Positions 16,016 to 40,213 of a stretch of 64,000 bases of DNA are shown here, one piece after another (positions within the stretch are counted from its first letter, which is position 1; each line of letters begins with the position of its first letter). A program made the translations under genes and the position numbers. The notes beneath the pieces are model-generated. The model made no database searches, was not told the DNA's origin, and saw nothing but the letters and a program-made list of their open reading frames with translations. The stretch lies in sequence record PQ306574.1. One strand, written 5' to 3'. Source of the DNA: Escherichia phage vB_EcoM_PTE-Eco09.

Positions 16016-16045
16016 GCACACATCGAAACAATGGAGGATAAAAAT

Positions 16046-17260
16046 ATGTTAGTACGTCAAGCGCATGAAATTGAATGGACTAAGGAGAAACATAATTGTA
16101 GAGCGAAAAGCCCAACAGATTTTTATGGTAAAATTTTAGAAATATGTAAAACAGAAAATTTAGTTTTTGTCGGCTTTGTTGGGGAATGGGAAGGAAACAA
16201 AACAAAAATAAAACTTATCTGCGAACATGGTCATGAATGGATATGTTCGATAGATAAATTTGTAAGTAAAGGAACAAGATGTTCTCATAAACAATGTAAA
16301 GGTAAACGAATATCTAAAAAATTGTCTATATCCGAAACGGAATACAAAACGAGAATTTTAGAAATATGTGAAACTGAAAATCTAATTTTCTTAGGTTTTG
16401 TTGGTGAATGGAAAGGGTGTGATACTAAAATTCGCATAAAATGCAAATACGGTCATGAATGGGATGTATCTATATATAGCTTCACAAAAATGAATACCAG
16501 ATGCCCTACATGCGCAGGACAGAACAGGACAAAAGACGAATACAAAACGAGAATTTTAGAAATATGTGAAACTGAAAATATAATTTTCTTAGGTTTTGTT
16601 GGTGAATGGAAAGGATGCCGCACAAAAATAAAACTTAGCTGCAAACACGGTCATGAATGGATATCTTCCATATTATGTTTTGTGTATCAAAATACTCGCT
16701 GTCCTGTATGTGTTGGTAGATTGTCTATCGACGATAGAATGATACAGATTAATCAAGTTTGCAATTCTTTAGGTTATGTAATAATTAAGATCCACGAAGA
16801 ATGGAAAAACACAGAAACTAAAATTGATGTTAAATGTTTATGTGATTATATATGGACAACAACAATACATAGAGTCATACATGGGACTACAGGTTGCAGA
16901 AAGTGTGCTACACATGGATACAATACAAAAAAATCGGGGACTCTTTATATACAGAAATTAACCAACGATGATTCCTTTGTTGGTGTGAAATTTGGAATAA
17001 CAAACAGAGACACGAATGAACGAATGAAAAACCAATCATCAAAGTCTAAATTCGACCATGAGATCTTTTATGAATTGACTTTACAAGACGGTCAAAAGAT
17101 CTTAGAATTAGAGAACAAGATCAAGAAAGCGATGAAAGGTAAAACTTCCTATATCTCAAAAGAAGATATGCCGGATGGCTGGACCGAAACAGTAGCGCCG
17201 TCTGAATTGAGCACTATCATGTATATCGTAAAAACTTTTGAAAAAGAGTTGACAGCGTAA
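16046..17260 (+). CDS. hypothetical protein with four tandem Cys/His-rich repeats and a C-terminal T5orf172/GIY-YIG-like domain
   Basis: Four ~70-aa repeats (TRILEICETEN-IFLGFVGEWKG…K-GHEW…TRCP-C) then GTLYIQKL…VGVKFGITNRD…ERMK; start set at ATG after GGAGG. Confidence 0.45.
   Translation: MLVRQAHEIEWTKEKHNCRAKSPTDFYGKILEICKTENLVFVGFVGEWEGNKTKIKLICEHGHEWICSIDKFVSKGTRCSHKQCKGKRISKKLSISETEYKTRILEICETENLIFLGFVGEWKGCDTKIRIKCKYGHEWDVSIYSFTKMNTRCPTCAGQNRTKDEYKTRILEICETENIIFLGFVGEWKGCRTKIKLSCKHGHEWISSILCFVYQNTRCPVCVGRLSIDDRMIQINQVCNSLGYVIIKIHEEWKNTETKIDVKCLCDYIWTTTIHRVIHGTTGCRKCATHGYNTKKSGTLYIQKLTNDDSFVGVKFGITNRDTNERMKNQSSKSKFDHEIFYELTLQDGQKILELENKIKKAMKGKTSYISKEDMPDGWTETVAPSELSTIMYIVKTFEKELTA
16111..16740. 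repeat. in-frame tandem DNA repeats (~210 bp units, 3-4 copies)
   Basis: Units beginning near 16120, 16333 and 16540 are highly similar; copies 2 and 3 are near-identical over about 80 nt. Confidence 0.7.
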
Positions 17261-17276
17261 CGCAATAGTGTATAAT
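17249..17276 (+). promoter_or_regulatory. sigma70-like early promoter with conserved leader
   Basis: TTGACA-N16-TATAAT-GCACAT-ATCGAAACA…GGAGG, overlapping 3' end of upstream ORF. Confidence 0.5.
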
Positions 17277-17305
17277 GCACATATCGAAACAACGGAGGAT
17301 TAACA

Positions 17306-17635
17306 ATGTTTTTGAATGCCACCCTTTCCCAGAAAAGTGATAAAATCGAACTTCTGTATGTCATTGCTGATGTGGACGTACAACGAAGAAATATAGATTT
17401 AAAAATTCACAAATATTATACTATGAGCGAATATCATGAAATAGAGATCCCACATAGTGTGTATCCTGCATTATTGTTAGGAAAAGGAAATCTAAGTGAA
17501 TATTCTTTGAAAGTCATCAAAGATTCTAAATCAATGCTTGCTCATATGGAAAAAGATTTTCTTGATGAAGTTTCCGCGCTAGTTATTAAACTGAAAGAAG
17601 AAACAGCACCGCTTTTCATGGAACAAAAAGGTTGA
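17306..17635 (+). CDS. hypothetical protein (109 aa)
   Basis: ATG ORF behind promoter/leader/SD cassette. Confidence 0.5.
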   Translation: MFLNATLSQKSDKIELLYVIADVDVQRRNIDLKIHKYYTMSEYHEIEIPHSVYPALLLGKGNLSEYSLKVIKDSKSMLAHMEKDFLDEVSALVIKLKEETAPLFMEQKG

Positions 17636-17659
17636 CGCCGAACACAGATGATGTATAAT
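17632..17659 (+). promoter_or_regulatory. sigma70-like early promoter with conserved leader
   Basis: TTGACG-N16-TATAAT-ACAAAC-ATCGAAACA. Confidence 0.5.
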
Positions 17660-17690
17660 ACAAACATCGAAACAAAGAGAGGACTATATT

Positions 17691-18020
17691 ATGTGGACAG
17701 TAGAAAAAATCGTTGACGAATCAACCGAAATTGTCTCGTGTGGCACTATTGAAGAATGTCTTAAAGCCGCTAACCGTGAATGTATTACGGTTTATGAATC
17801 CCGTCGCGGTGATGGTAGCTTGATTCAAAGTGATTATCGTTACACCGCACATAAAATTGTATTCCGTTTCTGGGAAAACGGTGTCAATGTCGGTGTCAGC
17901 TTACTGAAAATGTGGCGTGATTATTCCGAACGCTACTATGTTTCTCCTGATGATGGTAATGAATTTAAGACAGCAATCACAGAAGAAAATGTAAACGAAA
18001 ACTATTTCAAACTGATTTGA
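17691..18020 (+). CDS. hypothetical protein (109 aa)
   Basis: ATG ORF with SD behind promoter. Confidence 0.5.
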   Translation: MWTVEKIVDESTEIVSCGTIEECLKAANRECITVYESRRGDGSLIQSDYRYTAHKIVFRFWENGVNVGVSLLKMWRDYSERYYVSPDDGNEFKTAITEENVNENYFKLI

Positions 18021-18035
18021 TGGGAGATTTATATT

Positions 18036-22480: not shown

Positions 22481-22509
22481 TTGACGCGGGGAGAAATCCC
22501 CGCTATAAT
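22481..22509 (+). promoter_or_regulatory. early promoter with palindromic spacer (PeSL-like)
   Basis: TTGACG-CGGGGAGAAATCCCCGC-TATAAT then ACAACC-ATCAAAAACA leader. Confidence 0.5.
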
Positions 22510-22540
22510 ACAACCATCAAAAACAAGTGAGGATTTTATT

Positions 22541-22708
22541 ATGACCAAATTAAAATGTGTTGCTGTAGATTTTGAGCTAGCTGATAGCTTTGTTGTTGGT
22601 GATGAATATGATGCTCGACATGATGGGACTTGCTACTACGTCGAGGATGAATACGGTGTAGAATGGGCGATTCTTCCTGATGATAAATGTTTTGAGGTTG
22701 TCGGATAA
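22541..22708 (+). CDS. hypothetical small protein (55 aa)
   Basis: ATG with SD GTGAGG downstream of promoter; track ORF extends upstream without start signals. Confidence 0.45.
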   Translation: MTKLKCVAVDFELADSFVVGDEYDARHDGTCYYVEDEYGVEWAILPDDKCFEVVG

Positions 22709-23117: not shown

Positions 23118-23765
23118 ATGAACTTACAAAAACTACATGACGCAATCATAGAAAAAGCAAAGACGAGAGGAACCGTTGAAGGGTATAAGGAAACACATCA
23201 TATTTTACCGCGATCTATGGGTGGCGGTGATGAAGTTGATAACCTGATTGAGTTGACAGCAAAAGAACATTTCGTGATTCATCATCTGCTAGCAAAAATT
23301 CATGGTGGACCTATGGCACAAGCATTTGGTATGATGTGTTTAGCAAAAAATGCGAAGACCAATAAAAGAGATTATATTGTTTCGTCTAGGGTATATGAAC
23401 AAGCTAGGGTACTTATCTCTGAACAAAGAAAGGGCAAACCTATGAAAGAAGAAACGCGAAGAAAGATTAGCGAATCTTCGAAAGGTGTGTTGAAATCAGA
23501 AGAGACAAAAGCTAAAATGCGTAAGCCAAAAACAAAGGAGCACGCGTTAAACATTTCAAAAGCTAGAATGGGCAGTAAAAATCCTATGTTTGGGAAACCA
23601 TCGCCAACTAAAGGAATACCACATAGTGAGGAAATGAGAAAGCTGATTGCACAAAGGACAAAGGAAGCAACAATGGCAGATCCTTGTCCGCATTGCGGTA
23701 AAATTACCAATAAAGGCAATTCTCTACGATGGCACTTTGATAACTGTAAAATGAGGAATATGTGA
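23118..23765 (+). CDS. HNH homing endonuclease with NUMOD-like repeats, in the nrdA-nrdB intergenic position (as mobE in T4)
   Basis: HNH motif (HHILPRSMGGGDEVDNLIELTAKEH-HH); repeated KxExxxK(I/M)(S/R) NUMOD-like modules. Confidence 0.7.
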   Translation: MNLQKLHDAIIEKAKTRGTVEGYKETHHILPRSMGGGDEVDNLIELTAKEHFVIHHLLAKIHGGPMAQAFGMMCLAKNAKTNKRDYIVSSRVYEQARVLISEQRKGKPMKEETRRKISESSKGVLKSEETKAKMRKPKTKEHALNISKARMGSKNPMFGKPSPTKGIPHSEEMRKLIAQRTKEATMADPCPHCGKITNKGNSLRWHFDNCKMRNM

Positions 23766-24932
23766 ATGGGAAATACGGTATTTAATCGTGAACACGTTGA
23801 TATTATGAATGAACCGATGTTTCTGGGCAGCGGTTTAGGTATCGCTCGTTATGACATTCAGCGTCATCAAGTATTTGAAGAATTAATTGAAAAATCTCTG
23901 TCATTTTTTTGGCGCCCCGAAGAAATTTCACTTGCAACCGACCGCATTCAATATCTTAATATGGGTGACGTTGAAAAGCGTTTCTTTACTGAAAACTTGA
24001 AGTATCAGACATTACTTGATTCTATTCAAGGTCGCGCACCGTCCGCAGCATTTGGTCCAATTGTATCTGATCCAACTCTCGATACATGGTTGCAAACATG
24101 GACATTCAGCGAAACGATTCATAGCCGAAGCTATACACACATTATGCGTAACTGTTTCATTGATCCGGCTAGTGAGTTCGACCAGATCATCGATAACCCT
24201 GCTATCATGAAGCGAGCGGAATCTATCGGGAAATATTATGATGATGTTCTTTATTGGATTCGTAAGTATGAGAATGCAAAAGAAGATCTCCGCTATTGGG
24301 AAGAACGAGACGACCAGACAGCATTAGATGATGCAAGAAGATTTTTTGAAGATACAAAACGAGATCTGATGGCTTCGATTTATCTGTGTGCACACTGCGT
24401 AAATGCACTGGAAGCAATCCGTTTTTATGTGTCCTTTGCATGTACTTTCAGCTTTGCCGAACGTGGTTTACTGGAAGGTAACGCGAAGATCATGAAATTT
24501 ATTGCGCGTGATGAACAACTTCACTTAAAAGGAACACAATACATTATTCGTCAATGGCAAACGGGGGTTGATGGTGATGAGTGGAAACAGATTGCGGAAG
24601 AACTTGAAGGCGAAGCAACGAAAATCTTTCTGGATGTTGTCGAGCAAGAAAAAGAATGGGTAGACCACCTATTCGCAATGGGGGCAATTCCTAACCTGTC
24701 ACCGGAAATTCTGAAAACCTATGTAGAATACCTGGCAGATTCCCGTATGCGTGCTGCCGGACTGAAAAGCCCGTTTAGTGTTCGTCGTCATCCGTTACCG
24801 TGGATGCGTAAATGGTTGAACTCTGACGAAGTACAGAATGCAGCGCAGGAAGTAGAGATTATGTATCTGGTATCTCAGGTTAATACCGATTTAACAGACG
24901 ACGACTACAACCGATTCGGGAAATATCTATGA
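23766..24932 (+). CDS. nrdB: ribonucleotide reductase small subunit (class Ia beta)
   Basis: 388 aa, same length as T4 NrdB; di-iron/tyrosyl radical protein motifs (SETIHSRSYTHI, CTFSFAERG, ARDEQLH); continuous ORF. Confidence 0.95.
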   Translation: MGNTVFNREHVDIMNEPMFLGSGLGIARYDIQRHQVFEELIEKSLSFFWRPEEISLATDRIQYLNMGDVEKRFFTENLKYQTLLDSIQGRAPSAAFGPIVSDPTLDTWLQTWTFSETIHSRSYTHIMRNCFIDPASEFDQIIDNPAIMKRAESIGKYYDDVLYWIRKYENAKEDLRYWEERDDQTALDDARRFFEDTKRDLMASIYLCAHCVNALEAIRFYVSFACTFSFAERGLLEGNAKIMKFIARDEQLHLKGTQYIIRQWQTGVDGDEWKQIAEELEGEATKIFLDVVEQEKEWVDHLFAMGAIPNLSPEILKTYVEYLADSRMRAAGLKSPFSVRRHPLPWMRKWLNSDEVQNAAQEVEIMYLVSQVNTDLTDDDYNRFGKYL

Positions 24933-25405
24933 TATATTTTGTCGATTTAGATTTTACGATCACAGATCCAACGCATCGACTAGCAAAGATGCCAACCGAA
25001 AATCTTGATAAAGTCGAGTCATGGATCGAATATAACAAAGCATGTGGGGGAGATTCCCCCATTTACGATGTAATTCGTGTTATTAATGCTCTTTCCGACA
25101 ACGGGCATTTGATTTACATCCTCACAGGACGAAGTTCACATGCTTACATGGAAACAATTGATTGGTTAATTTCTAACGGGGTGTGTTTTGATAAAATCTT
25201 TATGAGAGGCCGTACCGATTCCCGTAAAGACTATCACATCAAATTAGAGGTAATTAAATCCTTTGATAAAGATGAAGTTGTCGGAGTCTTTGAGGATAAC
25301 CCAGAAGTGATTAAAGTTTTGCGTGAAAATGGTTATCGTGTCTTTGACGTAGGAAATCACAAAGATAAGACGCGAGCGGATATTGCAAATCACGGTCATG
25401 ATTAA
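24929..25405 (+). CDS. HAD-superfamily phosphatase-like protein
   Basis: 158 aa; N-terminal DxDxT (VDLDFTIT) and downstream HAD-like elements; resembles the phosphatase half of PseT. Confidence 0.5.
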   Translation: MIYFVDLDFTITDPTHRLAKMPTENLDKVESWIEYNKACGGDSPIYDVIRVINALSDNGHLIYILTGRSSHAYMETIDWLISNGVCFDKIFMRGRTDSRKDYHIKLEVIKSFDKDEVVGVFEDNPEVIKVLRENGYRVFDVGNHKDKTRADIANHGHD

Positions 25406-25416
25406 TGTTTGTTCAA

Positions 25417-25441
25417 AGTCGCCCATAGTGGCGACTTTTTT
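25417..25441 (+). terminator. rho-independent terminator
   Basis: AGTCGCC-CATAGT-GGCGACT followed by TTTTT. Confidence 0.6.
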
Positions 25442-25452
25442 GTTATTGGGTG

Positions 25453-25481
25453 TTGACAATCGGATCGGGGTATAGCATAAT
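25453..25481 (+). promoter_or_regulatory. early promoter with conserved leader
   Basis: TTGACA-N17-CATAAT-GCACCC-ATCGAAACGGAGG. Confidence 0.5.
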
Positions 25482-25505
25482 GCACCCATCGAAACGGAGG
25501 AACAT

Positions 25506-25724
25506 ATGGAAACAGAAGAACAAGTCATTGCATATTTTCATCGTAAAAAGATGAAACTTAGAATCGAAAAGCAGTACATCAATCACTACATTGACCGAGT
25601 TCACTTAACAAGTACACCTTACCTATTCCGGTTGATAAACCCTAGAAAACGGTGGGAGAAGTTGGATAGAAACACAAAAATAATTGATAAGCTCACCCAG
25701 TGGTGGAATGAATACAACAAGTAA
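25506..25724 (+). CDS. hypothetical protein (72 aa)
   Basis: ATG ORF behind promoter cassette. Confidence 0.5.
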   Translation: METEEQVIAYFHRKKMKLRIEKQYINHYIDRVHLTSTPYLFRLINPRKRWEKLDRNTKIIDKLTQWWNEYNK

Positions 25725-25731
25725 AAAGTAG

Positions 25732-25765
25732 TTGACACTGAATAACTGGGGTAGTAAGATACTCC
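25732..25765 (+). promoter_or_regulatory. PeSL-like element: early promoter with stem-loop enclosing the -10
   Basis: TTGACA-N17-TAAGAT; inverted repeat GGGGTAGTA/TACTCCC; then ATCGAAACGA leader and GGAGAATCAAAATG. Confidence 0.55.
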
Positions 25766-25793
25766 CATCGAAACGAAACAAAGGAGAATCAAA

Positions 25794-26012
25794 ATGAAAT
25801 TTACTTGCACCGACTCTATCAGCAAGCACTTTGTAGTAGGCGAAGTATACGAATCTACTACCATTCGCCAGCGTGACCTGATGGGTCGCCTTTACAATCA
25901 GCCAGTATTCATTATTGGCGAAGAATTGTTCTACATTGAAAACCGTCCGTGGGTTGCTTTCAATAAACGAGGACGCAAGGTAGCAAAATTCGAACTTGTC
26001 ATTAAAAAGTAG
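25794..26012 (+). CDS. hypothetical protein (72 aa)
   Basis: ATG ORF behind PeSL-like cassette. Confidence 0.5.
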   Translation: MKFTCTDSISKHFVVGEVYESTTIRQRDLMGRLYNQPVFIIGEELFYIENRPWVAFNKRGRKVAKFELVIKK

Positions 26013-26047
26013 TTGACAGCATGAAACGGGGGTAGTAATATACCCCC
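26013..26047 (+). promoter_or_regulatory. PeSL-like element
   Basis: TTGACA-N17-TAATAT; perfect inverted repeat GGGGGTA/TACCCCC around -10; ATCGAAACGA leader. Confidence 0.55.
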
Positions 26048-26079
26048 ATCGAAACGAAATACACTTTAAGGAGAATCAA

Positions 26080-26229
26080 ATGAACAACTTTGACGCGGTA
26101 CTGAAAATGGCAATCGAAACTTACGCGGAGATCTCCGGCGAGAAAGTAGAGGACATTATCAAAGAATGTCAGAACTTTGAAAGCCAGACAGCCAAGAATG
26201 TTCAAATGTTGATGTTTGCGGTTGCATAA
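26080..26229 (+). CDS. hypothetical small protein (49 aa)
   Basis: MNNFDAVLKMAIETYAEISGEKVEDIIKECQNFESQTAKNVQMLMFAVA; SD AAGGAG; hand-derived. Confidence 0.4.
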   Translation: MNNFDAVLKMAIETYAEISGEKVEDIIKECQNFESQTAKNVQMLMFAVA

Positions 26230-26237
26230 AAAAGCAG

Positions 26238-26272
26238 TTGACAGCATATCACGGGAGTAGTAAGATACTCCC
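26238..26272 (+). promoter_or_regulatory. PeSL-like element
   Basis: TTGACA-N17-TAAGAT; inverted repeat GGGAGTA/TACTCCC. Confidence 0.55.
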
Positions 26273-26299
26273 ATCCCAAAACAACTAAGGAGTATCAAG

Positions 26300-26698
26300 A
26301 TGATTAAATTTCAAACTCGCAAAGACGTTCTGGACTTCGTTAAAGTTTTCGGTTACGCTGCATTGCAACATGCAATGGACAAAATGACCATCTCCCCAGA
26401 TCAGACTATGCTGATCCGTATGGTTAAAGCAACCGCCTACAAAAACGACATTACCCTCTCAGAAATCAACGACGGTAATACTGTCCGCGAGGTAATTGTT
26501 TCTTTCGAATCACCGAAAATTGGAGGTTTTCATACCACGATGTTAGGTGAAATCACTGTCACTGTATACGGGCAAGGTGGCGGAGTGTTTACCGTCAAAG
26601 AAGCAATGGAAAACGGAACACTGAACAAAGAAAAACTGGAATTTGTCCTGAAAATCATCAATGAGCGTAACGAAGCTCGCGATATTCTGGAAAGTTAA
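26300..26698 (+). CDS. hypothetical protein (132 aa)
   Basis: ATG ORF with SD behind PeSL-like cassette. Confidence 0.5.
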   Translation: MIKFQTRKDVLDFVKVFGYAALQHAMDKMTISPDQTMLIRMVKATAYKNDITLSEINDGNTVREVIVSFESPKIGGFHTTMLGEITVTVYGQGGGVFTVKEAMENGTLNKEKLEFVLKIINERNEARDILES

Positions 26699-26705
26699 TA
26701 AGGTG

Positions 26706-26729
26706 GGCGGGAGAAATCCCGCCTTTGTT
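26706..26729 (+). terminator. terminator-like hairpin
   Basis: GGCGGGA-GAAA-TCCCGCC followed by TTTGTTG. Confidence 0.5.
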
Positions 26730-26748
26730 GTGACGTGAGGAAAGGATA

Positions 26749-27150
26749 ATGATTAATGAGCTAATAGAAAACTATGGATTCGTTAAATATTCATGTTTAG
26801 AGTGTAAAGATGGTGACGTGATTCTACCGCCTCAGAAGAACCGTTTAAATGTTCTTTACGCTATTTCGGTTGATGATGAACTGGTATACATTGGTCAGAC
26901 TGTCAATCTCAGAAAGCGGATCAATTATTAACGGACTAGCATTAACAGACAAACACCAACAGCGGATACTCGCAAGAGTAAGAATATTCATAAGGCGCTA
27001 GAGGAAGGTAAGACAGTAACATTCTATTACCGCCAGTGCTTTGAGTTATATATTGAGAATCCAACGGGTAAAGATATTATAAGCACTGCCGATATCGAAG
27101 AACCTGTTTTGATCACCAAATTTAAACCAGAATGGAACACAAATTATGTC
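26749..27150 (+). pseudogene. GIY-YIG nuclease-like reading frame interrupted by one in-frame TAA (at about 26929-26931)
   Basis: N-part VLYAISVDDELVYIGQTVNLRKRINY, then TAA, then same frame stays open with GIY-YIG-like C-part (…ELYIEN…EEPVLITKFKPEWN); 3' end overlaps rnlA start. Confidence 0.4.
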
Positions 27151-28315
27151 AACAAAAGAAAACAACAAAAAAGTTTTAGCATTGTTCAAAAATCTGATGG
27201 CACTATGTGACGGATCTGATACGTTCTATTACAAAGATGAAATTACGGCGATGCAAACCCGTATGCGCATTTTTAGCTATCTGTACTTGAGCAAACCTGA
27301 AATGTGGAATAAACCAGATGCGTTAGAGTGTCGCGGGATCATGTTTGAAATTGACGATAAAGGTCGTCCGGTCCGCATCGCATCTCGTCCTATGGAGAAG
27401 TTTTTTAATTTGGGTGAGAATGATCGCGCTCGCTTTAAGCCGGAAGATGTGGAAATGGTCATGGACAAAATGGACGGTAGTCTAGTAAGCACATACATTG
27501 ATAACGGCTATGTTCAGTTGAAGTCTAAAGCGGCCTTGTACTCAAGCCAGGCAGAGAGAGCAAACGGTCTTCTGTATTCAGAGAAGTATGCGGATCTACG
27601 CGCTAAGATTGCTGATATTGGGTCTGATTATACTTTCAACTTTGAATATACAGCGCCCAGCAACCGAATTGTTGTAGAATATTCTGAACCGTCGCTAACA
27701 CTTCTGAATGTACGCCATAACGTCACAGGAGAGTACGTACCGCATCAAATGCTATTTTCTGACGCAATCCTACGTCCTCATCTGGTAAATGCGTTACAGG
27801 TTGATTCAGCGCGTTTTAGCAATATTCTTGATGAAGTTCGGACCGCAGAAGGTATCGAAGGAATTGTTGCACGCACTAAAGACGGTCAAATGTTCAAAGT
27901 GAAGAGTGAATGGTATATTGGTGTGCATAACATTAAAAACACATCGATGTTTCCTAATAACCTGATCTACTATGTCGTAGAAAGCGAAACCGATGATTTG
28001 CGTGCTGCATATGAAGGCGAACCGGAAGCACTGGAACGAATCGAGCTATTCGAGGAAGCATTCAGGTCTATTCTTCGCAATGCCTTCACGACAGCAACAG
28101 AATTTTATAACGCACACGCGGGAGAAGACAGAAAGACATATGCATCAAATGCGACTATCGAATCACGTAAACATGGTGATGCACAAGCATATATTTTCAT
28201 GTGTCTGATGATTGCATTTGATGGTCTTGATTATGACCGTATTCTGGATTCAATGAAAACTTACTATCTACGGAATTATAAGAAACTTATTCCGGCTGAT
28301 AAGATTGATTGGTAA
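27146..28315 (+). CDS. rnlA: RNA ligase 1
   Basis: 389 aa; nucleotidyltransferase motif I lysine in KMDGSL; size and neighbourhood as T4 gene 63. Confidence 0.8.
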   Translation: MSTKENNKKVLALFKNLMALCDGSDTFYYKDEITAMQTRMRIFSYLYLSKPEMWNKPDALECRGIMFEIDDKGRPVRIASRPMEKFFNLGENDRARFKPEDVEMVMDKMDGSLVSTYIDNGYVQLKSKAALYSSQAERANGLLYSEKYADLRAKIADIGSDYTFNFEYTAPSNRIVVEYSEPSLTLLNVRHNVTGEYVPHQMLFSDAILRPHLVNALQVDSARFSNILDEVRTAEGIEGIVARTKDGQMFKVKSEWYIGVHNIKNTSMFPNNLIYYVVESETDDLRAAYEGEPEALERIELFEEAFRSILRNAFTTATEFYNAHAGEDRKTYASNATIESRKHGDAQAYIFMCLMIAFDGLDYDRILDSMKTYYLRNYKKLIPADKIDW

Positions 28316-28359: not shown

Positions 28360-28683
28360 ATGTCAAAGCTGATATACATTGTTATCATCTCTGTGTTGCT
28401 AGGGGTAGGTGGTAATATGTGGTGGGAAAATAAAAAGGAGGTAGATCGACTGAATCAGGAATTTACAGAGTATAAGAAAAAGACAGATGAAAAGATGAAG
28501 GTCGTAGACTCACTACAAAAGGAGATGTACGGAATAAGAACTAAGTTTGCAGAAGAACAAAACAAAGCAATGAAAGACGCTACACGAGGCTATGTAGTAG
28601 CACAAAAACCAAAGTTGGTAGAGAAACAGCTTAATGATTCATTTAAGGAGTTTACCGAAGAATTAAAGGAGGCTACTAAATGA
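28360..28683 (+). CDS. i-spanin-like protein (N-terminal TM, periplasmic coiled coil)
   Basis: MSKLIYIVIISVLLGVGG TM then charged coiled-coil-like region; next to pseT as T4 pseT.3; track ORF starts upstream at a non-ATG codon. Confidence 0.5.
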   Translation: MSKLIYIVIISVLLGVGGNMWWENKKEVDRLNQEFTEYKKKTDEKMKVVDSLQKEMYGIRTKFAEEQNKAMKDATRGYVVAQKPKLVEKQLNDSFKEFTEELKEATK

Positions 28684-28799
28684 GCATAGAAATATTGCCT
28701 ACACAAGAGCAGATAAGCAATTTTAATCTGGTTGATTATCTGTGGATAGGTGCAAGCATTATTATCCTGATGGTGTTTTCAATTTTCGTGATACACTGG

Positions 28800-29132
28800 A
28801 TGTTTAAGAAAGCACATAAGAATTTTCAGACCTCCATAATCCATGTCTTCGCTTTGCCTATTGTATTTGCGCTTTCTTCGTGTACAATGGACCATTATTC
28901 ACAGGAACCGAAAGTACATCCTCCACTACCAGCACCAATAGAAAAAGTTGACATTGACCTGAAAGTGGATACAATAGACGGTAAACCTAGAGTTTCTATG
29001 TCGTGGGAGGACTCCCAAAAATTCAGAGTCTGGCTTGCGGATATTAAGAGATATACACTTGAAAGTAAGTTGATCATGTGTTATTATCGAAAAGAACTTA
29101 ATGAGGAACGGTGCAAACCGAAGGAGAAATAA
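28800..29132 (+). CDS. o-spanin-like lipoprotein (the ORF could instead start at 28680)
   Basis: Internal ATG gives signal peptide MFKKAHKNFQTSIIHVFALPIVFALSSC with lipobox-like LSSC; Pro-rich mature part; position as T4 pseT.2. Confidence 0.45.
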   Translation: MFKKAHKNFQTSIIHVFALPIVFALSSCTMDHYSQEPKVHPPLPAPIEKVDIDLKVDTIDGKPRVSMSWEDSQKFRVWLADIKRYTLESKLIMCYYRKELNEERCKPKEK

Positions 29133-30010
29133 TGCCGAAATGTGAAGTGATTTTAACCGTTGGTTGTTCTGGGTCCGGTAAAACTACATGGGCGATGGAA
29201 ACATGTAAACGGTTTAGTAATTATCGTAATGTGAATCGTGATGATCTTCGTCTTATGTTGTTTGGTGTTGACTCACATTTGAAATACAAGTATACTAAGG
29301 AAAAAGAAAAGCTGGTAGAGTCTATTCAGAGAATGATTGCTCGTGAGACTCTATCACGCGGATTGAGTATCATTATCTCCGATACCAACCTGAAAGAAAA
29401 ACATCGTGTATTCTACAAAGAACTTGCAAAAGAATTTAACGCGGTGTATACTGAACAAGTGTTCAATGAATCATTTGAGACACTAAAGAAACGTAATTTC
29501 TATCGCGGTGAGAAAGCAATTCCACTTTCTCATTTGCGCAACCAATTTTATCTGATGCAGGAATATATGGGTCAAGAAGTATACAAACCGAATACCATGC
29601 TGCCAAAGGCAGTGATCTTTGATATTGATGGGACATTAGCGGATAAGGGCGGTCGTCATCCGTTTGACTGGACAAAGGTCAAAGAAGATAAACCTCGTCC
29701 GCAAGTGGTCGAAATGCTTAAACTGTATCGTGATAATGGTTATCGTATCATTACATGCTCAGGGCGTGAGGATGTTTGCGAAGAAGATACTCTGCAATGG
29801 TTGCGTGAACAGGGTATTGAACCGAGTGATCACTTTCAACGTGAAACTAATGATCGTCGTCCTGATCATGAAGTGAAGAAAGAGATCTTCTTCTCTGAAA
29901 TTGCACCGCGTTATCATGTTGTTTTGGCGGTAGATGACCGTGATCAAGTGGTTGACATGTATCGCTCAATTGGTGTAGAATGTTTTCAGGTTAACTACGG
30001 AGACTTTTAA
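29132..30010 (+). CDS. pseT: polynucleotide 5'-kinase / 3'-phosphatase
   Basis: P-loop GCSGSGKTT, HAD phosphatase DxDGT (IFDIDGTLA), C-terminus VDDR-QVV-MYRSIGVEC-QV--GDF matching T4 Pnk; start at ATG after GGAG. Confidence 0.9.
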   Translation: MPKCEVILTVGCSGSGKTTWAMETCKRFSNYRNVNRDDLRLMLFGVDSHLKYKYTKEKEKLVESIQRMIARETLSRGLSIIISDTNLKEKHRVFYKELAKEFNAVYTEQVFNESFETLKKRNFYRGEKAIPLSHLRNQFYLMQEYMGQEVYKPNTMLPKAVIFDIDGTLADKGGRHPFDWTKVKEDKPRPQVVEMLKLYRDNGYRIITCSGREDVCEEDTLQWLREQGIEPSDHFQRETNDRRPDHEVKKEIFFSEIAPRYHVVLAVDDRDQVVDMYRSIGVECFQVNYGDF

Positions 30011-34093: not shown

Positions 34094-34122
34094 TTGACAG
34101 GGGATCGGTGATCCCCTATACT
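34094..34122 (+). promoter_or_regulatory. PeSL-like element (promoter with palindromic spacer)
   Basis: TTGACA-GGGGATCGGTGATCCCC-TATACT; leader ACACAC-ATCAAAACGA…GGAGAATCAAAAATG. Confidence 0.55.
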
Positions 34123-34167
34123 ACACACATCAAAACGAAACACACTTTCTTAAACGGAGAATCAAAA

Positions 34168-34479
34168 ATGAAATACATCGTAACGCTGCCAATGATTGAC
34201 TTCGACGGAACCATGAACACCCAGAAGACCATGAGCGCGGAGAACCAACTGAAAAACGCTACCCTGATTCGTGAAGTTCGCAAGGCACTGGCAAAAGAAT
34301 TTAACACCAAAATTCATTCTGTAACTGGCGAACGTTTCGCGGATCATCTTGATATCAACATCAAACCAGTGCGCAACGGTGTTATCTCTGTAACAACCAG
34401 CCGCCCACATGCTGACGCTGATAATCTGACCGCTCGCGCAGAAGATGTAATTATGACCGTTATCATGGAAAAACTTTAA
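34168..34479 (+). CDS. hypothetical protein (103 aa); paralog of ORF 36360-36647
   Basis: Shares AKEFN-K block with 36360 ORF (REVRKALAKEFNTKI vs VRDAVAKEFNFKF). Confidence 0.5.
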   Translation: MKYIVTLPMIDFDGTMNTQKTMSAENQLKNATLIREVRKALAKEFNTKIHSVTGERFADHLDINIKPVRNGVISVTTSRPHADADNLTARAEDVIMTVIMEKL

Positions 34480-34487: not shown

Positions 34488-34516
34488 TTGACAGGGGATC
34501 ACCGATCCCCTATACT
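34488..34516 (+). promoter_or_regulatory. PeSL-like element
   Basis: TTGACA-GGGGATCACCGATCCCC-TATACT; spacer palindrome kept with its centre inverted relative to 34100. Confidence 0.55.
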
Positions 34517-34550
34517 ACACACATACCAACGAGATATAGGAGAATCAAAA

Positions 34551-34718
34551 ATGTTCCAGACTAAAGCAGAATGCGAAGCATACATTGTAGCAAACCACGG
34601 CGAAGATTATCTGAAATTTGACATTGTAGTAGCACAGAAGATCACCGGAATGGTTGCAAAATATCTGGGTGTTAAAGAAGGTTACTATCCGAGCAACGCA
34701 CCGGAAATCAACAAATAA
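34551..34718 (+). CDS. hypothetical small protein (55 aa); duplicated at 37835-38002
   Basis: MFQTKAECEAYIVANHGEDYLKFDIVVAQKITGMVAKYLGVKEGYYPSNAPEINK; near-identical second copy. Confidence 0.55.
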   Translation: MFQTKAECEAYIVANHGEDYLKFDIVVAQKITGMVAKYLGVKEGYYPSNAPEINK

Positions 34719-34721
34719 TAG

Positions 34722-34756
34722 TTGACAATGATTAAAGGGAGTAGTAAGATACTCCC
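34722..34756 (+). promoter_or_regulatory. PeSL-like element
   Basis: TTGACA-N17-TAAGAT; inverted repeat GGGAGTA/TACTCCC. Confidence 0.55.
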
Positions 34757-34782
34757 ATCAAGACAACAAACGGAGAATCAAA

Positions 34783-34962
34783 ATGAAAGCTATCGAAGTT
34801 CAGAAGTACATGGAAATCATCGTTGAAGGTAAAGCACATACAGTATTGACTACCCACGTAGGATATGATAAAAATGTGCATATGCTGGTAGACAATATCG
34901 GCTGGATGAAGTTTAATCCTAACGAGAACGTACAAGCTCAAGAAATGACCATCCCTTTCTAA
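34783..34962 (+). CDS. hypothetical small protein (59 aa)
   Basis: MKAIEVQKYMEIIVEGKAH…; hand-derived. Confidence 0.4.
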   Translation: MKAIEVQKYMEIIVEGKAHTVLTTHVGYDKNVHMLVDNIGWMKFNPNENVQAQEMTIPF

Positions 34963-36284: not shown

Positions 36285-36318
36285 TTGACACCGGATCGGG
36301 GATATAGCATAATATCCC
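36285..36318 (+). promoter_or_regulatory. PeSL-like element
   Basis: TTGACA-N17-CATAAT; inverted repeat GGGGATAT/ATATCCCC around -10; ATCGAAACGAGATACACTTTC leader. Confidence 0.55.
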
Positions 36319-36359
36319 CATCGAAACGAGATACACTTTCTAACTAGGAGAATCAAATT

Positions 36360-36647
36360 ATGGCATACATTACTATCACTCTGAAAGTTAACAAATTCGC
36401 TCACGCTGCACACGAAACCGATAATGCAATCCGTAACAACAAGTTCGCACGTCTGGTACGCGATGCGGTAGCTAAAGAGTTCAACTTCAAATTTGCAGAT
36501 GGTAAAGTTATCACTAAATGGACTCATGACGGCGAAACTAAAGTAGAACTTGCTGATAACTTCGCAAATCAGGAATATGCACACCGTCGCATTAATGAAA
36601 TTATCAGCGATGAACTCTACTACGGTGTACAGGAAGGACTGTTTTAA
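36360..36647 (+). CDS. hypothetical protein (95 aa); paralog of ORF 34168-34479
   Basis: ATG ORF behind PeSL; shared AKEFN block. Confidence 0.5.
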   Translation: MAYITITLKVNKFAHAAHETDNAIRNNKFARLVRDAVAKEFNFKFADGKVITKWTHDGETKVELADNFANQEYAHRRINEIISDELYYGVQEGLF

Positions 36648-37065: not shown

Positions 37066-37094
37066 GTTGACACCAGATCACGCCTATAGCATAA
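37066..37094 (+). promoter_or_regulatory. early promoter with conserved leader
   Basis: TTGACA-N17-CATAAT-ACACCC-ATCGAAACGAGATACCACTTAGGAGAATCAAACAATG. Confidence 0.5.
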
Positions 37095-37135
37095 TACACC
37101 CATCGAAACGAGATACCACTTAGGAGAATCAAACA

Positions 37136-37405
37136 ATGGCGCTGACTAAAACCACTACCAACTTTGCAAAACGTCACGGCTTCGACCTTGAAATCAATAG
37201 CTTTAACGATTACACCCTTCTGTGTGTATATGAAATCGAAAATGATTGCGAGTGGATGTTCAGCTATCGCGTAAACGAAGACGGATCTTTCACTTGGAAC
37301 GGAAATATCTATCTTGCACAGGAAGTAAAAGAAGAACTACCGGCGACTATCAAAGATGAGAAGCATTTACGTCAAGTTTTAAAATTTATTTCTGAAAATA
37401 TCTAA
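37136..37405 (+). CDS. hypothetical protein (89 aa)
   Basis: ATG ORF behind promoter cassette. Confidence 0.5.
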   Translation: MALTKTTTNFAKRHGFDLEINSFNDYTLLCVYEIENDCEWMFSYRVNEDGSFTWNGNIYLAQEVKEELPATIKDEKHLRQVLKFISENI

Positions 37406-37413: not shown

Positions 37414-37442
37414 TTGACACCAAAGTAAGAACATAGCATAAT
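37414..37442 (+). promoter_or_regulatory. early promoter with conserved leader
   Basis: TTGACA-N17-CATAAT-ACACAC-ATACCGAAACGA. Confidence 0.5.
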
Positions 37443-37475
37443 ACACACATACCGAAACGAACTGGAGAATCAAAA

Positions 37476-37757
37476 ATGAAATTCATCAAAGCAACCGAAA
37501 TCCTGAAAAACAAAGAAGCATACATCGGAAACATCGTTGGTATGAACATTCGCGGCGCTGGTAGCCAGTGGACCAAACTGGTTGATGTTAAAGCTAAAGG
37601 CGATAAAATTGAGTTCACTGTAAAAATGCTTACTCATAACGCACATATGGGTATCAAGACAAAAACGATGGCAGCAGATAAAAGCATCAACTATCAGGAT
37701 CTGGGCGATTGGCTGAACTGGTGCAAAATACACAACATCGAAACTAATCACGAATAA
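37476..37757 (+). CDS. hypothetical protein (93 aa)
   Basis: ATG ORF behind promoter cassette. Confidence 0.5.
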   Translation: MKFIKATEILKNKEAYIGNIVGMNIRGAGSQWTKLVDVKAKGDKIEFTVKMLTHNAHMGIKTKTMAADKSINYQDLGDWLNWCKIHNIETNHE

Positions 37758-37771: not shown

Positions 37772-37800
37772 TTGACGGGGATCGGGAGATCCCCTATAAT
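37772..37800 (+). promoter_or_regulatory. PeSL-like element
   Basis: TTGACG-GGGATCGGGAGATCCCC-TATAAT; palindromic spacer. Confidence 0.55.
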
Positions 37801-37834
37801 GCACACATACCAACGAGATATAGGAGAATCAAAA

Positions 37835-38002
37835 ATGTTCCAGACTAAAGCAGAATGCGAAGCATATATCATTGAAACCCACGGCGAAGATTATCTGAAA
37901 TTTGACATTGTAGTAGCACAGAAGATTGTAGGGATGGTTGCGAAATACCTCGGAGTTAAAGAAGGTTACTATCCTAGCAACGCACCAGAAATTAACAAAT
38001 AA
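37835..38002 (+). CDS. hypothetical small protein (55 aa); second copy of ORF 34551-34718
   Basis: MFQTKAECEAYIIETHGEDYLKFDIVVAQKIVGMVAKYLGVKEGYYPSNAPEINK; 3 aa differences from first copy. Confidence 0.55.
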   Translation: MFQTKAECEAYIIETHGEDYLKFDIVVAQKIVGMVAKYLGVKEGYYPSNAPEINK

Positions 38003-38015: not shown

Positions 38016-38044
38016 GTTGACAGGGGAGGATAACTCCCCTACAA
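38016..38044 (+). promoter_or_regulatory. PeSL-like element
   Basis: TTGACA-GGGGAGGATAACTCCCC-TACAAT; then ACAACC-ATCAAGACGAGATACCACTTAGGAGAATCAAACAATG. Confidence 0.55.
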
Positions 38045-38085
38045 TACAACCATCAAGACGAGATACCACTTAGGAGAATCAAACA

Positions 38086-38337
38086 ATGGCTAACATCGAA
38101 ACCGCAAAGAAAATCGCTAAAGACCTGAACGTTAAAGGCTTCCGTAAACTGAAATTACAGCGTGTACGCTACACCATCGGCAAACAGTGCTCTTTCATGA
38201 GCGAAGAAGTTGCTAACAGCCTGATTGATAACCTGATTGCGGCTGGCTGGGAAGTTGCGGATCTGAAAACTTGCCGCGAACTGGCTAAAAAAGGTCTTTT
38301 AGATTCTGTTACTATCAAACCAATGGGGGCAGCGTGA
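38086..38337 (+). CDS. hypothetical protein (83 aa)
   Basis: ATG ORF behind PeSL; first codons MANIE shared with ORF 40214. Confidence 0.5.
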   Translation: MANIETAKKIAKDLNVKGFRKLKLQRVRYTIGKQCSFMSEEVANSLIDNLIAAGWEVADLKTCRELAKKGLLDSVTIKPMGAA

Positions 38338-38579
38338 AAAGAAAATTAATTAAACGCAATAAGGAATTTCTTAATAACTGCATTAAGGCCGCTAATGGTT
38401 GGCCTTTGTGCCTCTTCCTTTATGATTGGTATTCTAAACAATCAGTTGAGGAAGCACGACACTATAAGAAGATCAGAAAAGAATCACACACAAAACAAGG
38501 TCGCATTAACGGACTTTACTTAATGTGGCACGGTAAAGAACCGACTAAAATCTGTGCTGGGTTAAAGGGTCGTATATGA
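38334..38579 (+). CDS. hypothetical basic protein (81 aa); first gene of coupled four-gene module
   Basis: Start overlaps upstream stop; stop overlaps next start. Confidence 0.45.
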   Translation: MKRKLIKRNKEFLNNCIKAANGWPLCLFLYDWYSKQSVEEARHYKKIRKESHTKQGRINGLYLMWHGKEPTKICAGLKGRI

Positions 38580-39292
38580 AACAAAAATTAATATTCTGCA
38601 ACTTTGACGGATCGGGAATAATGGGGCTAGAATGGGCTAAAGCAGGTCATAAGGTAGTCTGCTTTAATGCGGATGACGCCGACCACGGTACATACAAAAA
38701 GTATAATACCAGATTTGAACATCCAAACATTACCTATGTAAACACATGGATTGATTTGAATTGGCTGGAAAGAGCAATGGACCTTGAATGGGGGAAACCG
38801 GATATTATCTTTGCATTCCCACCGTGCACCAATTTAGCTGTTAGTGGCGCTGCGCACTTTGAACGAAAGAAACTAGAACAAGGACCATTGATTCAAGTTC
38901 ATGATGTAAGGGCAGCTAAAATAACCGCTTATTTGGGTGAATGGCTAGGAGTTCCCTACATGATAGAGAATCCTGTAAGCGTTATCTCTAGTATGTGGCG
39001 TAAGCCTGATTACATGTTCCATCCGTGGGAATATGGCGGTTATTTGCCGGAAGATGATAAACATCCTACTTTTCCTGAGTATATCGCCGCCCGTGATATG
39101 TACCCGAAAAAGACTTGCTTATGGACCGGACAAGGCTTTATAATGCCAGAAAAGAAACCGTTGCAGATTAATAAAGGGTACAGTAAACAGCATTCTAAGC
39201 TAGGCGGGAAAGGAACGAAAACAAAGACTATCAGGTCACTTACCCCGCGAGGATTCGCAAAGGCAGTATTTGAAGCCAATAAGGATCTATGA
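38576..39292 (+). CDS. DNA C5-cytosine methyltransferase-like protein (minimal, 238 aa)
   Basis: Motif order and spacing of C5-MTase catalytic domain: FDGSGIMG (motif I-like), AFPPC (PCQ-like with Cys), IENPV (ENV-like); too short for a canonical target recognition domain. Confidence 0.45.
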   Translation: MKQKLIFCNFDGSGIMGLEWAKAGHKVVCFNADDADHGTYKKYNTRFEHPNITYVNTWIDLNWLERAMDLEWGKPDIIFAFPPCTNLAVSGAAHFERKKLEQGPLIQVHDVRAAKITAYLGEWLGVPYMIENPVSVISSMWRKPDYMFHPWEYGGYLPEDDKHPTFPEYIAARDMYPKKTCLWTGQGFIMPEKKPLQINKGYSKQHSKLGGKGTKTKTIRSLTPRGFAKAVFEANKDL

Positions 39293-39621
39293 TGAGATTG
39301 TTTAAGTATTCGCTAACGTCAAATTACGATAAACAAGGTCATTGCATCCGTTGCCCTGATTGTCATAGCCATAACATCGAAAGCAAGATCACCGATCATA
39401 TTGATGGACTTTGGTCGCCAGCAAGTGAAATAGAATACTATTGCGCTGATTGTGGAATTGTAGTAGCATATTGGGCATACGGATCATATGATCCATACTT
39501 CCAGATGGGAGAGCGTTCAATCCCTGCGCTTATCTGGAGAATTAAGAACAATATCCGGCATTCATGGGATGAGTTCTTAAAAGATATTGATTTACGTGAT
39601 GACCCATTCAGGAGACTATAA
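39289..39621 (+). CDS. zinc-ribbon protein (110 aa)
   Basis: CIRCPDC … CADCG four-cysteine arrangement; overlapping start with upstream stop. Confidence 0.45.
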   Translation: MMRLFKYSLTSNYDKQGHCIRCPDCHSHNIESKITDHIDGLWSPASEIEYYCADCGIVVAYWAYGSYDPYFQMGERSIPALIWRIKNNIRHSWDEFLKDIDLRDDPFRRL

Positions 39622-39622
39622 C

Positions 39623-40141
39623 ATGAACCGTTTAACGCCTAAACGCCGTTACTATACCAATACTAAAAACTTTGTCATCTCTGTTTATGATGCATGGTTA
39701 GAAGATGGCTATATCAACATGAACCCAGATTATCAGCGTCCTTTAGTATGGGACACCGAAAACAAACGTATGTTTATTGAAAACCTGATTAATGATTTTC
39801 CGGTTGGTGCTATCGCAATGGCTAAGATTGATGATGGCTCTCGCTATGAGATCGAAATCGTGGACGGTAAACAGCGTTTAAACGCAATATTCTCCTTTAT
39901 GAAGGATGAGTTTAGCATTGCTTGTAATGATGATTCTATGTTGTATTACAGTGATTTTACGCCAGCAGAAAAGCGACGTTTCCGAAATCTCGGACTACCC
40001 GCGATCATGATGGAAGAGAGCACACGAGAAGACCGATTAGAGTATTTCTACAAAACAAACTTTTTCGGTGTACCTCAATCGGAAGAACATCGCCAGCATG
40101 TGATTGCATTATTGCAAGATGAACAATTAAAAAATAACTAA
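39623..40141 (+). CDS. DUF262 / ParB-like domain protein (about 172 aa) without nuclease domain
   Basis: DYQRPLVW and EIVDGKQRLNAI resemble DUF262 signatures (FQRxxVW, DGQQR) of GmrSD-type N-terminal domains; start at ATG after GGAG. Confidence 0.45.
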   Translation: MNRLTPKRRYYTNTKNFVISVYDAWLEDGYINMNPDYQRPLVWDTENKRMFIENLINDFPVGAIAMAKIDDGSRYEIEIVDGKQRLNAIFSFMKDEFSIACNDDSMLYYSDFTPAEKRRFRNLGLPAIMMEESTREDRLEYFYKTNFFGVPQSEEHRQHVIALLQDEQLKNN

Positions 40142-40148
40142 AAAGTTG

Positions 40149-40177
40149 TTGACAGGGGATCGGTGATCCCCTATAAT
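40149..40177 (+). promoter_or_regulatory. PeSL-like element
   Basis: TTGACA-GGGGATCGGTGATCCCC-TATAAT; same spacer palindrome as at 34100. Confidence 0.55.
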
Positions 40178-40213
40178 GCACACATACCGAAACGAACTAC
40201 TAAGGAGTATCAA

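Follow-up and report, generated by a model that had tools for sequence, protein, structure and literature searches.

The early promoters in a 64,000-nucleotide (nt) stretch of Escherichia phage vB_EcoM_PTE-Eco09 (record PQ306574.1; the whole stretch is called the window here) have a ten-base sequence in common, ATCGAAACGA, which is the predicted initial transcribed sequence (+1 to +10) of sigma70-type early promoters and makes up the 3' half of the promoter cassettes known as PeSL elements. The motif is common to the early promoters of many unrelated phages, and there it keeps a fixed offset to the -10 hexamer and is sharp to the single base. Since the same ten bases occupy the same place in many unrelated phages, ATCGAAACGA seems to be a promoter-proximal element not described before and more than a peculiarity of this phage. 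The phage is RB49-like: positions 24,000-30,000 of the window are 98.6-99.3% identical to Escherichia phage RB49 and its relatives (genus Krischvirus, T4-type myoviruses), and the + strand of the window corresponds to the minus strand of RB49.

When the promoters of the window were collected by their -35 and -10 hexamers alone, without using the leader, 18 intergenic promoters of the TTGACA/TATAAT type were obtained between 15,988 and 40,216. A sequence of the ATCGAAACGA family is present in 17 of the 18, at the predicted start (C-1 A+1 T+2). In 15 it has at most three mismatches and begins exactly 6 nt past the -10 (no mismatch in four promoters, one in five, two in one and three in five), promoters 37414 and 40149 have ACCGAAACGA 8 nt past the -10, promoter 26238 has a degenerate relative of the motif, and no motif-like sequence follows the -10 of promoter 29952. 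With a background of 0.5% per position, the probability of this placement is about 3e-32. The initial annotation of the window had claimed that almost every early promoter is followed by this leader, which holds for the looser family and not for the pattern as it was literally written, found in only 9 of 18. The enrichment relative to shuffled sequence, which was proposed as a check, is evident: the degenerate pattern ATMVAAACR has 36 matches in the window as compared to 13.2 ± 3.3 in shuffles, and ATCGAAACGA with at most one mismatch has 17 as compared to 6.5 ± 2.6, every one of them on the + strand. All 13 copies of the 8-mer ATCGAAAC are likewise on the + strand. A second block, GAGATAC(C)ACTT, had been said to follow often; it is seen in 5 of 18 promoters even when relatives such as AACACACTTT are included, and sometimes is the better word. 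The leader was also held to be independent of the stem-loops in these promoters, and it is, because promoters 15988, 17249 and 17632, with a 16-nt spacer and no stem-loop, carry the motif.

The motif is under constraint in Krischvirus. Of the 59 gene-proximal promoter-like sites in the RB49 genome, 28 have it at offset 6 and five more at offset 8, and no other offsets are populated. It occurs in 2 of the 89 other promoter-like sites and at 0.5% of random positions. The bases C-1, A+1 and T+2, the classical 'CAT' start context, hold about 1 bit each in the RB49 promoters, equal to T-12 or T-10, and A at +5, +7, +10 and +12 holds 0.5-0.7 bit. A comparison of orthologous promoters in the window, RB49 and nine related contigs showed that the differences concentrate in the centre of the spacer, at -6, -4 and -2 of the discriminator, and upstream of -44. 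Positions -5, -3, -1, +1 and +2 are invariant among the orthologues, and +3 to +10 changes only when one family variant replaces another, for instance ATACCAACGAGATAT for ATACCGAAACGAAAT. The leader of promoter 25453 is identical to that of RB49, although five of the 17 spacer positions and three of the six discriminator positions differ, and at promoter 40149 the entire spacer and the -10 have been replaced and the leader kept. It was also observed that the discriminators of the 18 window promoters follow the pattern nCnCnC, for instance at 26,042-26,047 and 37,096-37,101.

Outside this group the motif was searched for in IMG/VR with the pattern TTGACA-N18-A-N3-T-N6-ATCGAAACGA, which specifies 18 bases. 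With the motif at offset 6 there were 112 stretches with 115 sites. Grouping of the sites by their variable positions gave 51-58 clusters, of which 47 lie outside Krischvirus, and the contigs range from 0.25 to 0.64 in GC. The motif was found at offset 7 in 20 stretches and at offset 12 in 2. Two shuffles of the motif, ACAGATAGCA and ATACGACAGA, the latter with A+1 and T+2 retained, gave 2 stretches each, and in both cases the two were duplicates of one coding-region sequence without a credible -10, which rules out an effect of composition (A-rich, AT start). The single-base variants at +6 gave 4 stretches (ATCGACACGA, the exact rrn-type sequence) and none (ATCGAGACGA), and this rules out for phages that the conserved part is the looser core GAnACG, common with the rrn P1 promoters. 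In the 47 clusters outside Krischvirus the positions that the pattern left free are promoter-like, with T-12 in 32 of 47, T-10 in 32 of 47, Y-1 in 44 of 47 and tG before the -35, and as T-12, T-10 and Y-1 are conserved although unforced, the matches are real promoters. The spacer of these clusters is without information and +11 to +26 is depleted of T. Furthermore, the near-variants ATCAAAACGA, ATCGAAACAA, ATCGAAGCAA and ATGAAAACAA stand at the same offset in other promoters of the same loci, and three leader sub-types (..GAGAT.., ..ACAACGG.. and ..AACAC..) recur across different phage groups. The proteins encoded downstream of the IMG/VR sites belong to 56 unrelated families, mostly 40-130 amino acids (aa) long and of the small ORFan type, which rules out that the motif hitch-hikes with a single gene family. 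When the loci were clustered by single linkage on all their open reading frames (ORFs), 90 of them fell into one component, which was uninformative.

The cultured relatives of these contigs are diverse. They include 45-48 kb siphoviruses of Salmonella, E. coli and Klebsiella, siphoviruses of Klebsiella of about 50 kb and a dozen different Pseudomonas phages that have a leader of 23-35 nt in common, and myoviruses of about 150 kb (Cronobacter CR9-like phages and Erwinia phage pEp_SNUABM_01). In pEp_SNUABM_01 the motif directly precedes a tRNA-Met gene. One 360 kb jumbo contig has three copies, and T7-like contigs have gtaccacATCGAAACGACAGTGAGTC at the position of the A3 promoter. For the groups of 25%, 33% and 63% GC, the search for a host returned distant matches or none. 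In 596 Gb of bacterial genomes the same pattern had 68 matches, as compared to 112 stretches in IMG/VR; many are ATCGAAACGAT... palindromes resembling LacI-type operators, and a few are copies of the phages. The 10-mer at +1 usually belongs to such a palindrome (ATCGAAACGAT..., ATATCGAAACGATAT) in Paenibacillus, Cohnella, Clostridia and some Actinomycetota. These bacterial copies look like operators of the LacI family placed over the start site, a phenomenon separate from the phage motif. A full-text literature search for ATCGAAACGA, AUCGAAACGA and related strings, within the part of the literature that was accessible, returned unrelated primers only, and in that part we did not find the distribution across phages described.

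The cassettes themselves are known. The early region of the window, at 12-44 kb, contains gene 32, frd, td, nrdA/B, denA, rnlA, pseT, cd and the ligase gene, followed by small hypothetical genes up to alt, and the cassette region corresponds to RB49 ORFs p185-p240, a hyperplastic region with intergenic promoters. PeSLs were described in such 'hyperplastic regions' of RB49 and phi1 by Arbiol et al. in 2010 (PMC2839356), and consist of an AT-rich tract, a consensus sigma70 promoter, a G/C stem-loop, and the Shine-Dalgarno sequence (SD) and ATG of the next ORFan, an arrangement that is repeated (PMC2839356; PMC4122927). They terminate upstream transcription, and recombination takes place between the copies (PMC2839356; Comeau et al. 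2014, PMC4122927); termination or attenuation by the stem-loop was established by experiment for PeSL211/210 only, and the crossovers of PeSL mini-circles were mapped between the -10 and the ATG (PMC2839356). The early promoters of the window agree with this description. They have a TTGACA or TTGACG -35, a spacer of 16-18 nt, a TATAAT-like -10 and aaaaagttg upstream, they are intergenic, and their leaders of 18-40 nt end in GGAG...ATG. About 12 of the 18, as read directly from the sequence, have a G/C stem-loop in the spacer or over the -10, for instance GGGGATCggtGATCCCC (promoters 34094 and 40149) and GGGGGtagTAATATaCCCCC (promoter 26013). The motif is contained in the published alignments of the same phage group and the same loci, between the -10 and the SD, but the papers colour and discuss the promoter boxes, stem-loop, SD and ATG, and leave the block from +1 to +10 undiscussed (PMC2839356, PMC4122927). 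The early-promoter logos of Nolan et al. likewise come without a discussion of it. Unlike the PeSL stem-loop, the motif is also present in the stem-loop-free promoters of the window and in phages without any PeSL stem-loops.

That the leader is part of a recombination cassette, as the initial annotation had considered, is supported by the window itself, in which the motif lies at recombination junctions. The upstream gene, spacer, -10 and discriminator of promoter 34488, up to +5, match the RB49 PeSL at 122,881, and from +6 on the sequence matches the RB49 PeSL at 121,736, so that the junction must lie within CACACATACC (34,518-34,527, that is -5 to +5). The window lacks about 1.1 kb of RB49 at this promoter, and swaps of spacers and leaders were also seen. 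A similar modularity is found in siphoviruses of Klebsiella and Vibrio, where a conserved promoter, TTGACA...TAGATT (TTGACAgggggcgcaaaactgacgTAGATT, divergent), is joined just past the -10 to three leader-plus-gene modules, only one of which carries the motif (ATCGAAACGG). This implies that a given promoter can do without the motif, and that the motif can move along with the downstream gene. The alternative modules include a superinfection-immunity gene, and the shuffling is PeSL-like with no stem-loop present.

The likeness to known strong promoters extends to phage T7 and the host. The T7 A3 transcript starts with ATGAAACGACAGTGAGTC (ATGAAACGAC; the promoter reads gtaccacATGAAACGACAGTGAGTC), where the +1 is annotated at the A and the first gene follows at a distance of 175 nt, and the A1 transcript starts with ATCGAGAGGG, also annotated at the A. 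Both are strong early promoters of the host polymerase. They differ from the phage motif in that A3 lacks the C at +3 and A1 diverges past +5, and both have a discriminator of 7 nt and long leaders. To our knowledge, no function has been assigned to the first bases of these two transcripts. Among the E. coli rrn P1 promoters, the strongest of the host and with C-rich discriminators like the phage promoters, the start of rrnH/rrnE, ATCGACACGG, is identical to the motif at 8 of 10 positions (the +1 of rrnH being placed by homology with rrnB P1), that of rrnD, GTTGAGACGA, at 7 of 10, and that of rrnA/B/C/G, ACTGACACGG, at 6 of 10. The last is followed by AACAACGG, as in the phage leader sub-type ATCGAAACGA-ACAACGG. 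The rrn P1 promoters differ in having an 8-nt discriminator, a 16-nt spacer and a non-consensus -35, and their leaders are not those of mRNAs. It was also observed that the spacer GGGGAGGATAACTCCCC of promoter 38017 (38,023-38,039) has the 9-mer ATAACTCCC in common with rrnA/B/C/G P1 (GGAATAACTCCC-TATAAT), directly upstream of the -10 in both. Taken with the C-rich discriminators and the starts, which are rrn-like as well, the common 9-mer suggests mimicry of the host rRNA promoters, or descent from them, for some of the early promoters of Krischvirus.

It is most likely that the host RNA polymerase starts transcription at the A of the motif in this phage, since the T7 starts are annotated at this base and since Nolan et al. 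(2006) state that the RB49 early consensus, C-rich at -3 to -1, agrees with 5'-end mapping cited there (PMC1524935). Beyond this statement on the 5' ends, no start data were found in the literature on Krischvirus transcription. An initiating-nucleotide context, one of the roles originally suggested, is supported by the lock of the motif to the predicted +1, by its offsets in IMG/VR and by the T7 annotations. The reading that we prefer, with a probability of about 0.45, is that ATCGAAACGA is a promoter-proximal module of initiation, that selection has favoured it because it gives the earliest accessory genes reliable starts of high output, and that recombination between cassettes has spread and homogenised it. 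The sequence CGAAACGA after the start would then be a promoter-proximal element maintained by selection, probably acting on the DNA or on the nascent transcript inside the initiating polymerase, where it would define the start site and make productive initiation and escape more likely. The outcome would be a burst of early transcripts with a short, A-rich and unstructured 5' end. Because the motif is repeated before dozens of small accessory genes, it may have a second role as part of a homology patch for cassette recombination, which in turn would spread and homogenise it.

The motif depends neither on the SD nor on the downstream gene, and it is T-poor and purine-rich with G at +4 and +9. 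Effects of the initial transcribed sequence, the 'downstream sequence region', were reportedly described at T5 N25 by Kammerer in 1986 and Hsu in 2006. The first 10-20 transcribed bases alter the output of promoters, T5 N25 among others, more than 10-fold through escape and pausing (PMC5961368), and T residues and TG or TA in the first 7 nt slow escape, while GA or GG near +6 and purine richness favour it (Heyduk & Heyduk 2018, PMC5961368). The motif agrees with these studies in being T-poor and purine-rich, and differs in being a specific 10-mer that is conserved across phages. The stability of the RNA-DNA hybrid of the 10-mer relative to the DNA duplex, calculated by hand with published nearest-neighbour values, is about neutral. 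A -10-like TAnnnT hexamer, the mark of a sigma70-dependent promoter-proximal pause element, does not occur within +1 to +10; TACACT at +13 to +18 in promoters 26013 and 36285 is -10-like, and few promoters have such a sequence.

Several observations weigh against an initiation module. The RB49 promoters of the core replication genes 32, 43, 45, 39 and uvsX are without the motif, which is evidently dispensable there, and it is also missing from 124 phage promoters of the form TGTTGACA-N17-TATAAT that were sampled without bias and are mostly of low GC. The latter rules out a universal property of sigma70 promoters, and the motif must be lineage-restricted and not universal to promoters of the bacterial RNA polymerase. 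The travelling of the siphovirus motif with its gene fits a cassette or an RNA-level role equally well. The likeness to rrn P1 and T7 A1 is a post hoc observation, and the exact rrn-type variant is not enriched in phages. In vitro selections have given no single optimal initial transcribed sequence and no natural consensus (PMC5961368), and a purely kinetic optimum therefore does not obviously explain the sharpness at +6, where a change from A to G or from A to C abolishes the enrichment; of all the observations this is the one that such an optimum explains least well. The sharp loss at +6 keeps a specific readout of the sequence alive as an explanation. We tentatively consider, at odds clearly below even, that ATCGAAACGA could be an unrecognised core-promoter element, read base-specifically by the initiating host polymerase or by a conserved factor on the nascent 5' end. 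Virulent phages that infect Gram-negative bacteria and are unrelated to each other (T4-like, T7-like, rV5-like, T1-like, Pseudomonas and jumbo phages) would then have converged on the motif, or exchanged it, for their earliest genes.

The recombination data could also mean that the motif has no biochemical role and is simply the conserved left end of mobile promoter or leader-plus-small-gene cassettes (PeSL-type, moron-like), with the similarity kept by gene conversion, passed between co-infecting phages, and used as homology for modular shuffling. The published PeSL recombination and mini-circles (PMC2839356, PMC4122927) speak for this, as do the junction in promoter 34488, the swaps of whole spacers and whole leaders between 98%-identical genomes, the siphovirus promoter with its alternative modules, the unrelated small ORFan-type proteins downstream, the leader sub-types recurring in different phage groups, and the 23-35-nt leader common to Pseudomonas and Klebsiella phages. 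However, 10-13 conserved bases are too few for efficient homologous recombination, and between lineages the flanks (spacer, discriminator and SD-to-ATG) are uninformative with the 10-mer intact, which requires purifying selection on the 10-mer itself. A recombination role does not need the strict offset to the -10, and the motif is also present at promoters that are not in cassettes, the T7-like A3 and the tRNA promoter. We regard a linker of this kind, including its maintenance by gene conversion and exchange, as rather unlikely. Still less probable is a DNA site for a sequence-specific trans-acting protein, an operator at +1 to +10 through which a host or phage regulator would switch early transcription off or on; RB49 is without MotA and AsiA (PMC1524935). 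The single-base specificity at +6 and a location typical of repressors would suit it, and the bacterial copies are mostly ATCGAAACGAT... palindromes like LacI-family operators over +1, but the phage copies are asymmetric, continue with A or G and are without a LacI-type second half-site (..CGTTTCGAT or similar). They are furthermore found on one strand only and at promoters only, no candidate protein was identified, and with hosts of 25%-64% GC and unrelated phage families no common phage regulator is evident.

An element acting at the level of RNA, in which the first ten nt of the transcript (pppAUCGAAACGA) matter through protection from decay by RppH and RNase E, a host RNA-binding factor, or ribosome loading on short leaders, seems unlikely to us, to about the same degree as the linker. 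In its favour the motif is locked to the 5' end, it is phage-enriched and rare in chromosomes, its single-base specificity suits a binding site, and in the Klebsiella siphoviruses it is tied to the downstream gene, not to the promoter. The leaders at the IMG/VR sites are short, 16-81 nt from +1 to the start codon with a median of 28 nt, and they are 49% A and T-poor from +11 to +26. On the other hand, the distance from motif to SD is not fixed: in the window it ranges from abutting (25488) to 17 nt (34129), and 11 of the 115 IMG/VR sites have no SD within 90 nt. Together with the tRNA-Met gene, whose leader RNase P removes, this implies that the motif is not a translation signal at fixed distance. 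The motif also heads T7-like A3 transcripts whose first gene is far downstream, and the similar rrn P1 leaders do not belong to mRNAs. It shows no excess of complementarity to the E. coli 16S rRNA, the native sequence pairing more weakly than 84-96% of shuffles do; for the motif and the second block GATACACTTT the best 16S duplex is no better than in shuffles, a fraction of 0.56-0.96 of which pair as well or better. The complementarity beyond the anti-SD that characterises an epsilon-type translational enhancer is accordingly not seen in the motif. A selection of the base order for an unstructured leader was rejected, as the effect beyond composition is about 0.4 kcal (z = 0.6) and not distinctive. 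No match to Rfam covariance models was obtained across the whole window. The consensus of NAD-capping promoters is HRRASWW, and the motif has the opposite at -1, +2, +3 and +4. The endoribonuclease or translational-repressor site that the initial annotation had proposed, which for these phages would mean RegB or RegA, is very improbable for the motif. Both regB and regA are encoded by RB49, with regB outside the counterpart region of the window. The consensus for strong RegB/S1 cleavage of T4 early mRNAs is GGAGRAYARAA (PMC3014915), and ATCGAAACGA contains neither GGAG nor GGAU. It is the SD block GGAGAATCAAA, 5-25 nt downstream of the motif, that matches this consensus at 10 of 11 positions in 11-12 of the 18 cassettes; the RegB/S1 site is thus another sequence conserved in the 5' leaders of T4-type early genes, but it is anchored to the SD and not to the start. 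The motif is also carried by phages that have no RegB homologue, such as T7-likes and siphoviruses, and a translational-repressor site agrees poorly with the variable SD distance, the tRNA-Met gene and the long untranslated leaders. The SD block GGAGAATCAAA starts at 25,783, 26,070, 34,156, 34,539, 34,772, 36,347, 37,123, 37,464, 37,823 and 38,073, and GGAGGATAAAA is found at 16,033. The SD blocks of most cassettes fit the RegB/S1 consensus at 10 or 11 of 11 positions, which suggests that the early mRNAs of these cassettes may be RegB targets.

The individual cassettes are all on the + strand. In the first, 15988..16048, the -35 is at 15988-15993 and the -10 at 16010-16015, ATCGAAACAA lies at 16022-16031 with one mismatch to ATCGAAACGA at offset 6, the predicted +1 is 16022 and the ATG is at 16046. 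It has no stem-loop, and neither have the cassettes 17249..17308 and 17632..17693, with ATCGAAACAA at 17283-17292 and 17666-17675. The PeSL at 22481..22543 has a stem-loop in the spacer and a degenerate motif, ATCAAAAACA (22516-22525, three mismatches). The motif of the PeSL at 25453..25508, ATCGAAACGG (25488-25497), runs straight into the SD GGAGG. The next two PeSLs have a stem around the -10 and an exact motif: 25732..25796 has ATCGAAACGA at 25767-25776, and 26013..26082, with a GGGGG/CCCCC stem, has it at 26048-26057, followed by AATACACTTTAAGGAGAATCAA. The degenerate leader of the PeSL at 26238..26302 reads ATCCCAAAAC (26273-26282), and a related contig has ATCGAAACGA before the same gene. 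The PeSL at 34094..34170, with the spacer stem GGGGATCggtGATCCCC, carries ATCAAAACGA at 34129-34138, and the chimeric PeSL at 34488..34553, which matches a different RB49 PeSL on either side of the junction interval 34518..34527, has the leader ATACCAACGA at 34523-34532. At 34722..34785 the PeSL has the variant ATCAAGACAA (34757-34766), and at 36285..36362 an exact motif (36320-36329) is followed by GATACACTTTC. The early promoter at 37067..37138 also has an exact motif (37102-37111), followed by GATACCACTT, and in the one at 37414..37478 ACCGAAACGA is shifted by 2 nt to 37451-37460, 8 nt past the -10. The leader ATACCAACGA appears again in the PeSL at 37772..37837 (37807-37816), where leader and gene start duplicate those of 34488. 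The last two PeSLs are 38017..38088, with the spacer GGGGAGGATAACTCCCC and the variant ATCAAGACGA at 38052-38061, and 40149..40216, with ACCGAAACGA at 40186-40195 shifted by 2 nt. Outside the range of the initial annotation, a possible further member is found at 57251..57294, a consensus promoter with a 16-nt spacer, ATTCAAACGG at 57285-57294 with three mismatches, and about 69 nt of leader before the ATG. A possible relative at 56679..56723 combines a consensus promoter with ATCGACATGC at 56714-56723, 7 nt past the -10, which resembles the rrnH/rrnE P1 start.

Some further features of the region were observed. Paralogous small genes with near-identical leaders and N-termini are present twice, MFQTKAECE... 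at 34,551 and 37,835 and MANIE... at 38,086 and 40,214, which implies that whole promoter-plus-gene cassettes have been duplicated within the region. Spacer stem-loops like GGGGATCnnnGATCCCC hold two Dam (GATC) sites, at 34,100-34,116, 34,494-34,510, 37,778-37,794 and 40,155-40,171, and RB49 encodes a Dam methyltransferase. A 215-aa ORF at 23,118-23,765 stands between the nrdA-distal small genes and nrdB, where in RB49 nrdB follows three small ORFs and a counterpart of comparable size is missing, and it may be an inserted mobile or homing-endonuclease gene. An intergenic gap of 415 bp after a terminator (57,800-58,205), unannotated in RB49, contains two direct repeats of about 45 bp, TAGTTT(TT)ACATGT...TGATTAAATTATGATCAAAACGAAGA, at about 57,845-57,902 and 58,005-58,052. 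Both repeats contain ATCAAAACGA without a standard sigma70 promoter in front, and could be tiny ORFs (MIKTK...), small RNAs or another type of promoter.

For the window alone the message is a smaller one, namely that the leader is the unremarked 3' half of published PeSL elements. A 10-mer that is locked to +1, sensitive to single bases and common to unrelated phages gives the question of the initial transcribed region a concrete sequence, and should it prove to be a core-promoter element, bacterial promoters would for the first time have a natural consensus in their initial transcribed region. If the motif boosts initiation or the survival of the 5' end, it would also be a portable part for strong, context-independent expression. 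It would then be a marker for early promoters and early genes, such as those for host takeover and anti-defence, in the genomes of uncultured phages, and a clue to how cassettes of small accessory genes move between phages.

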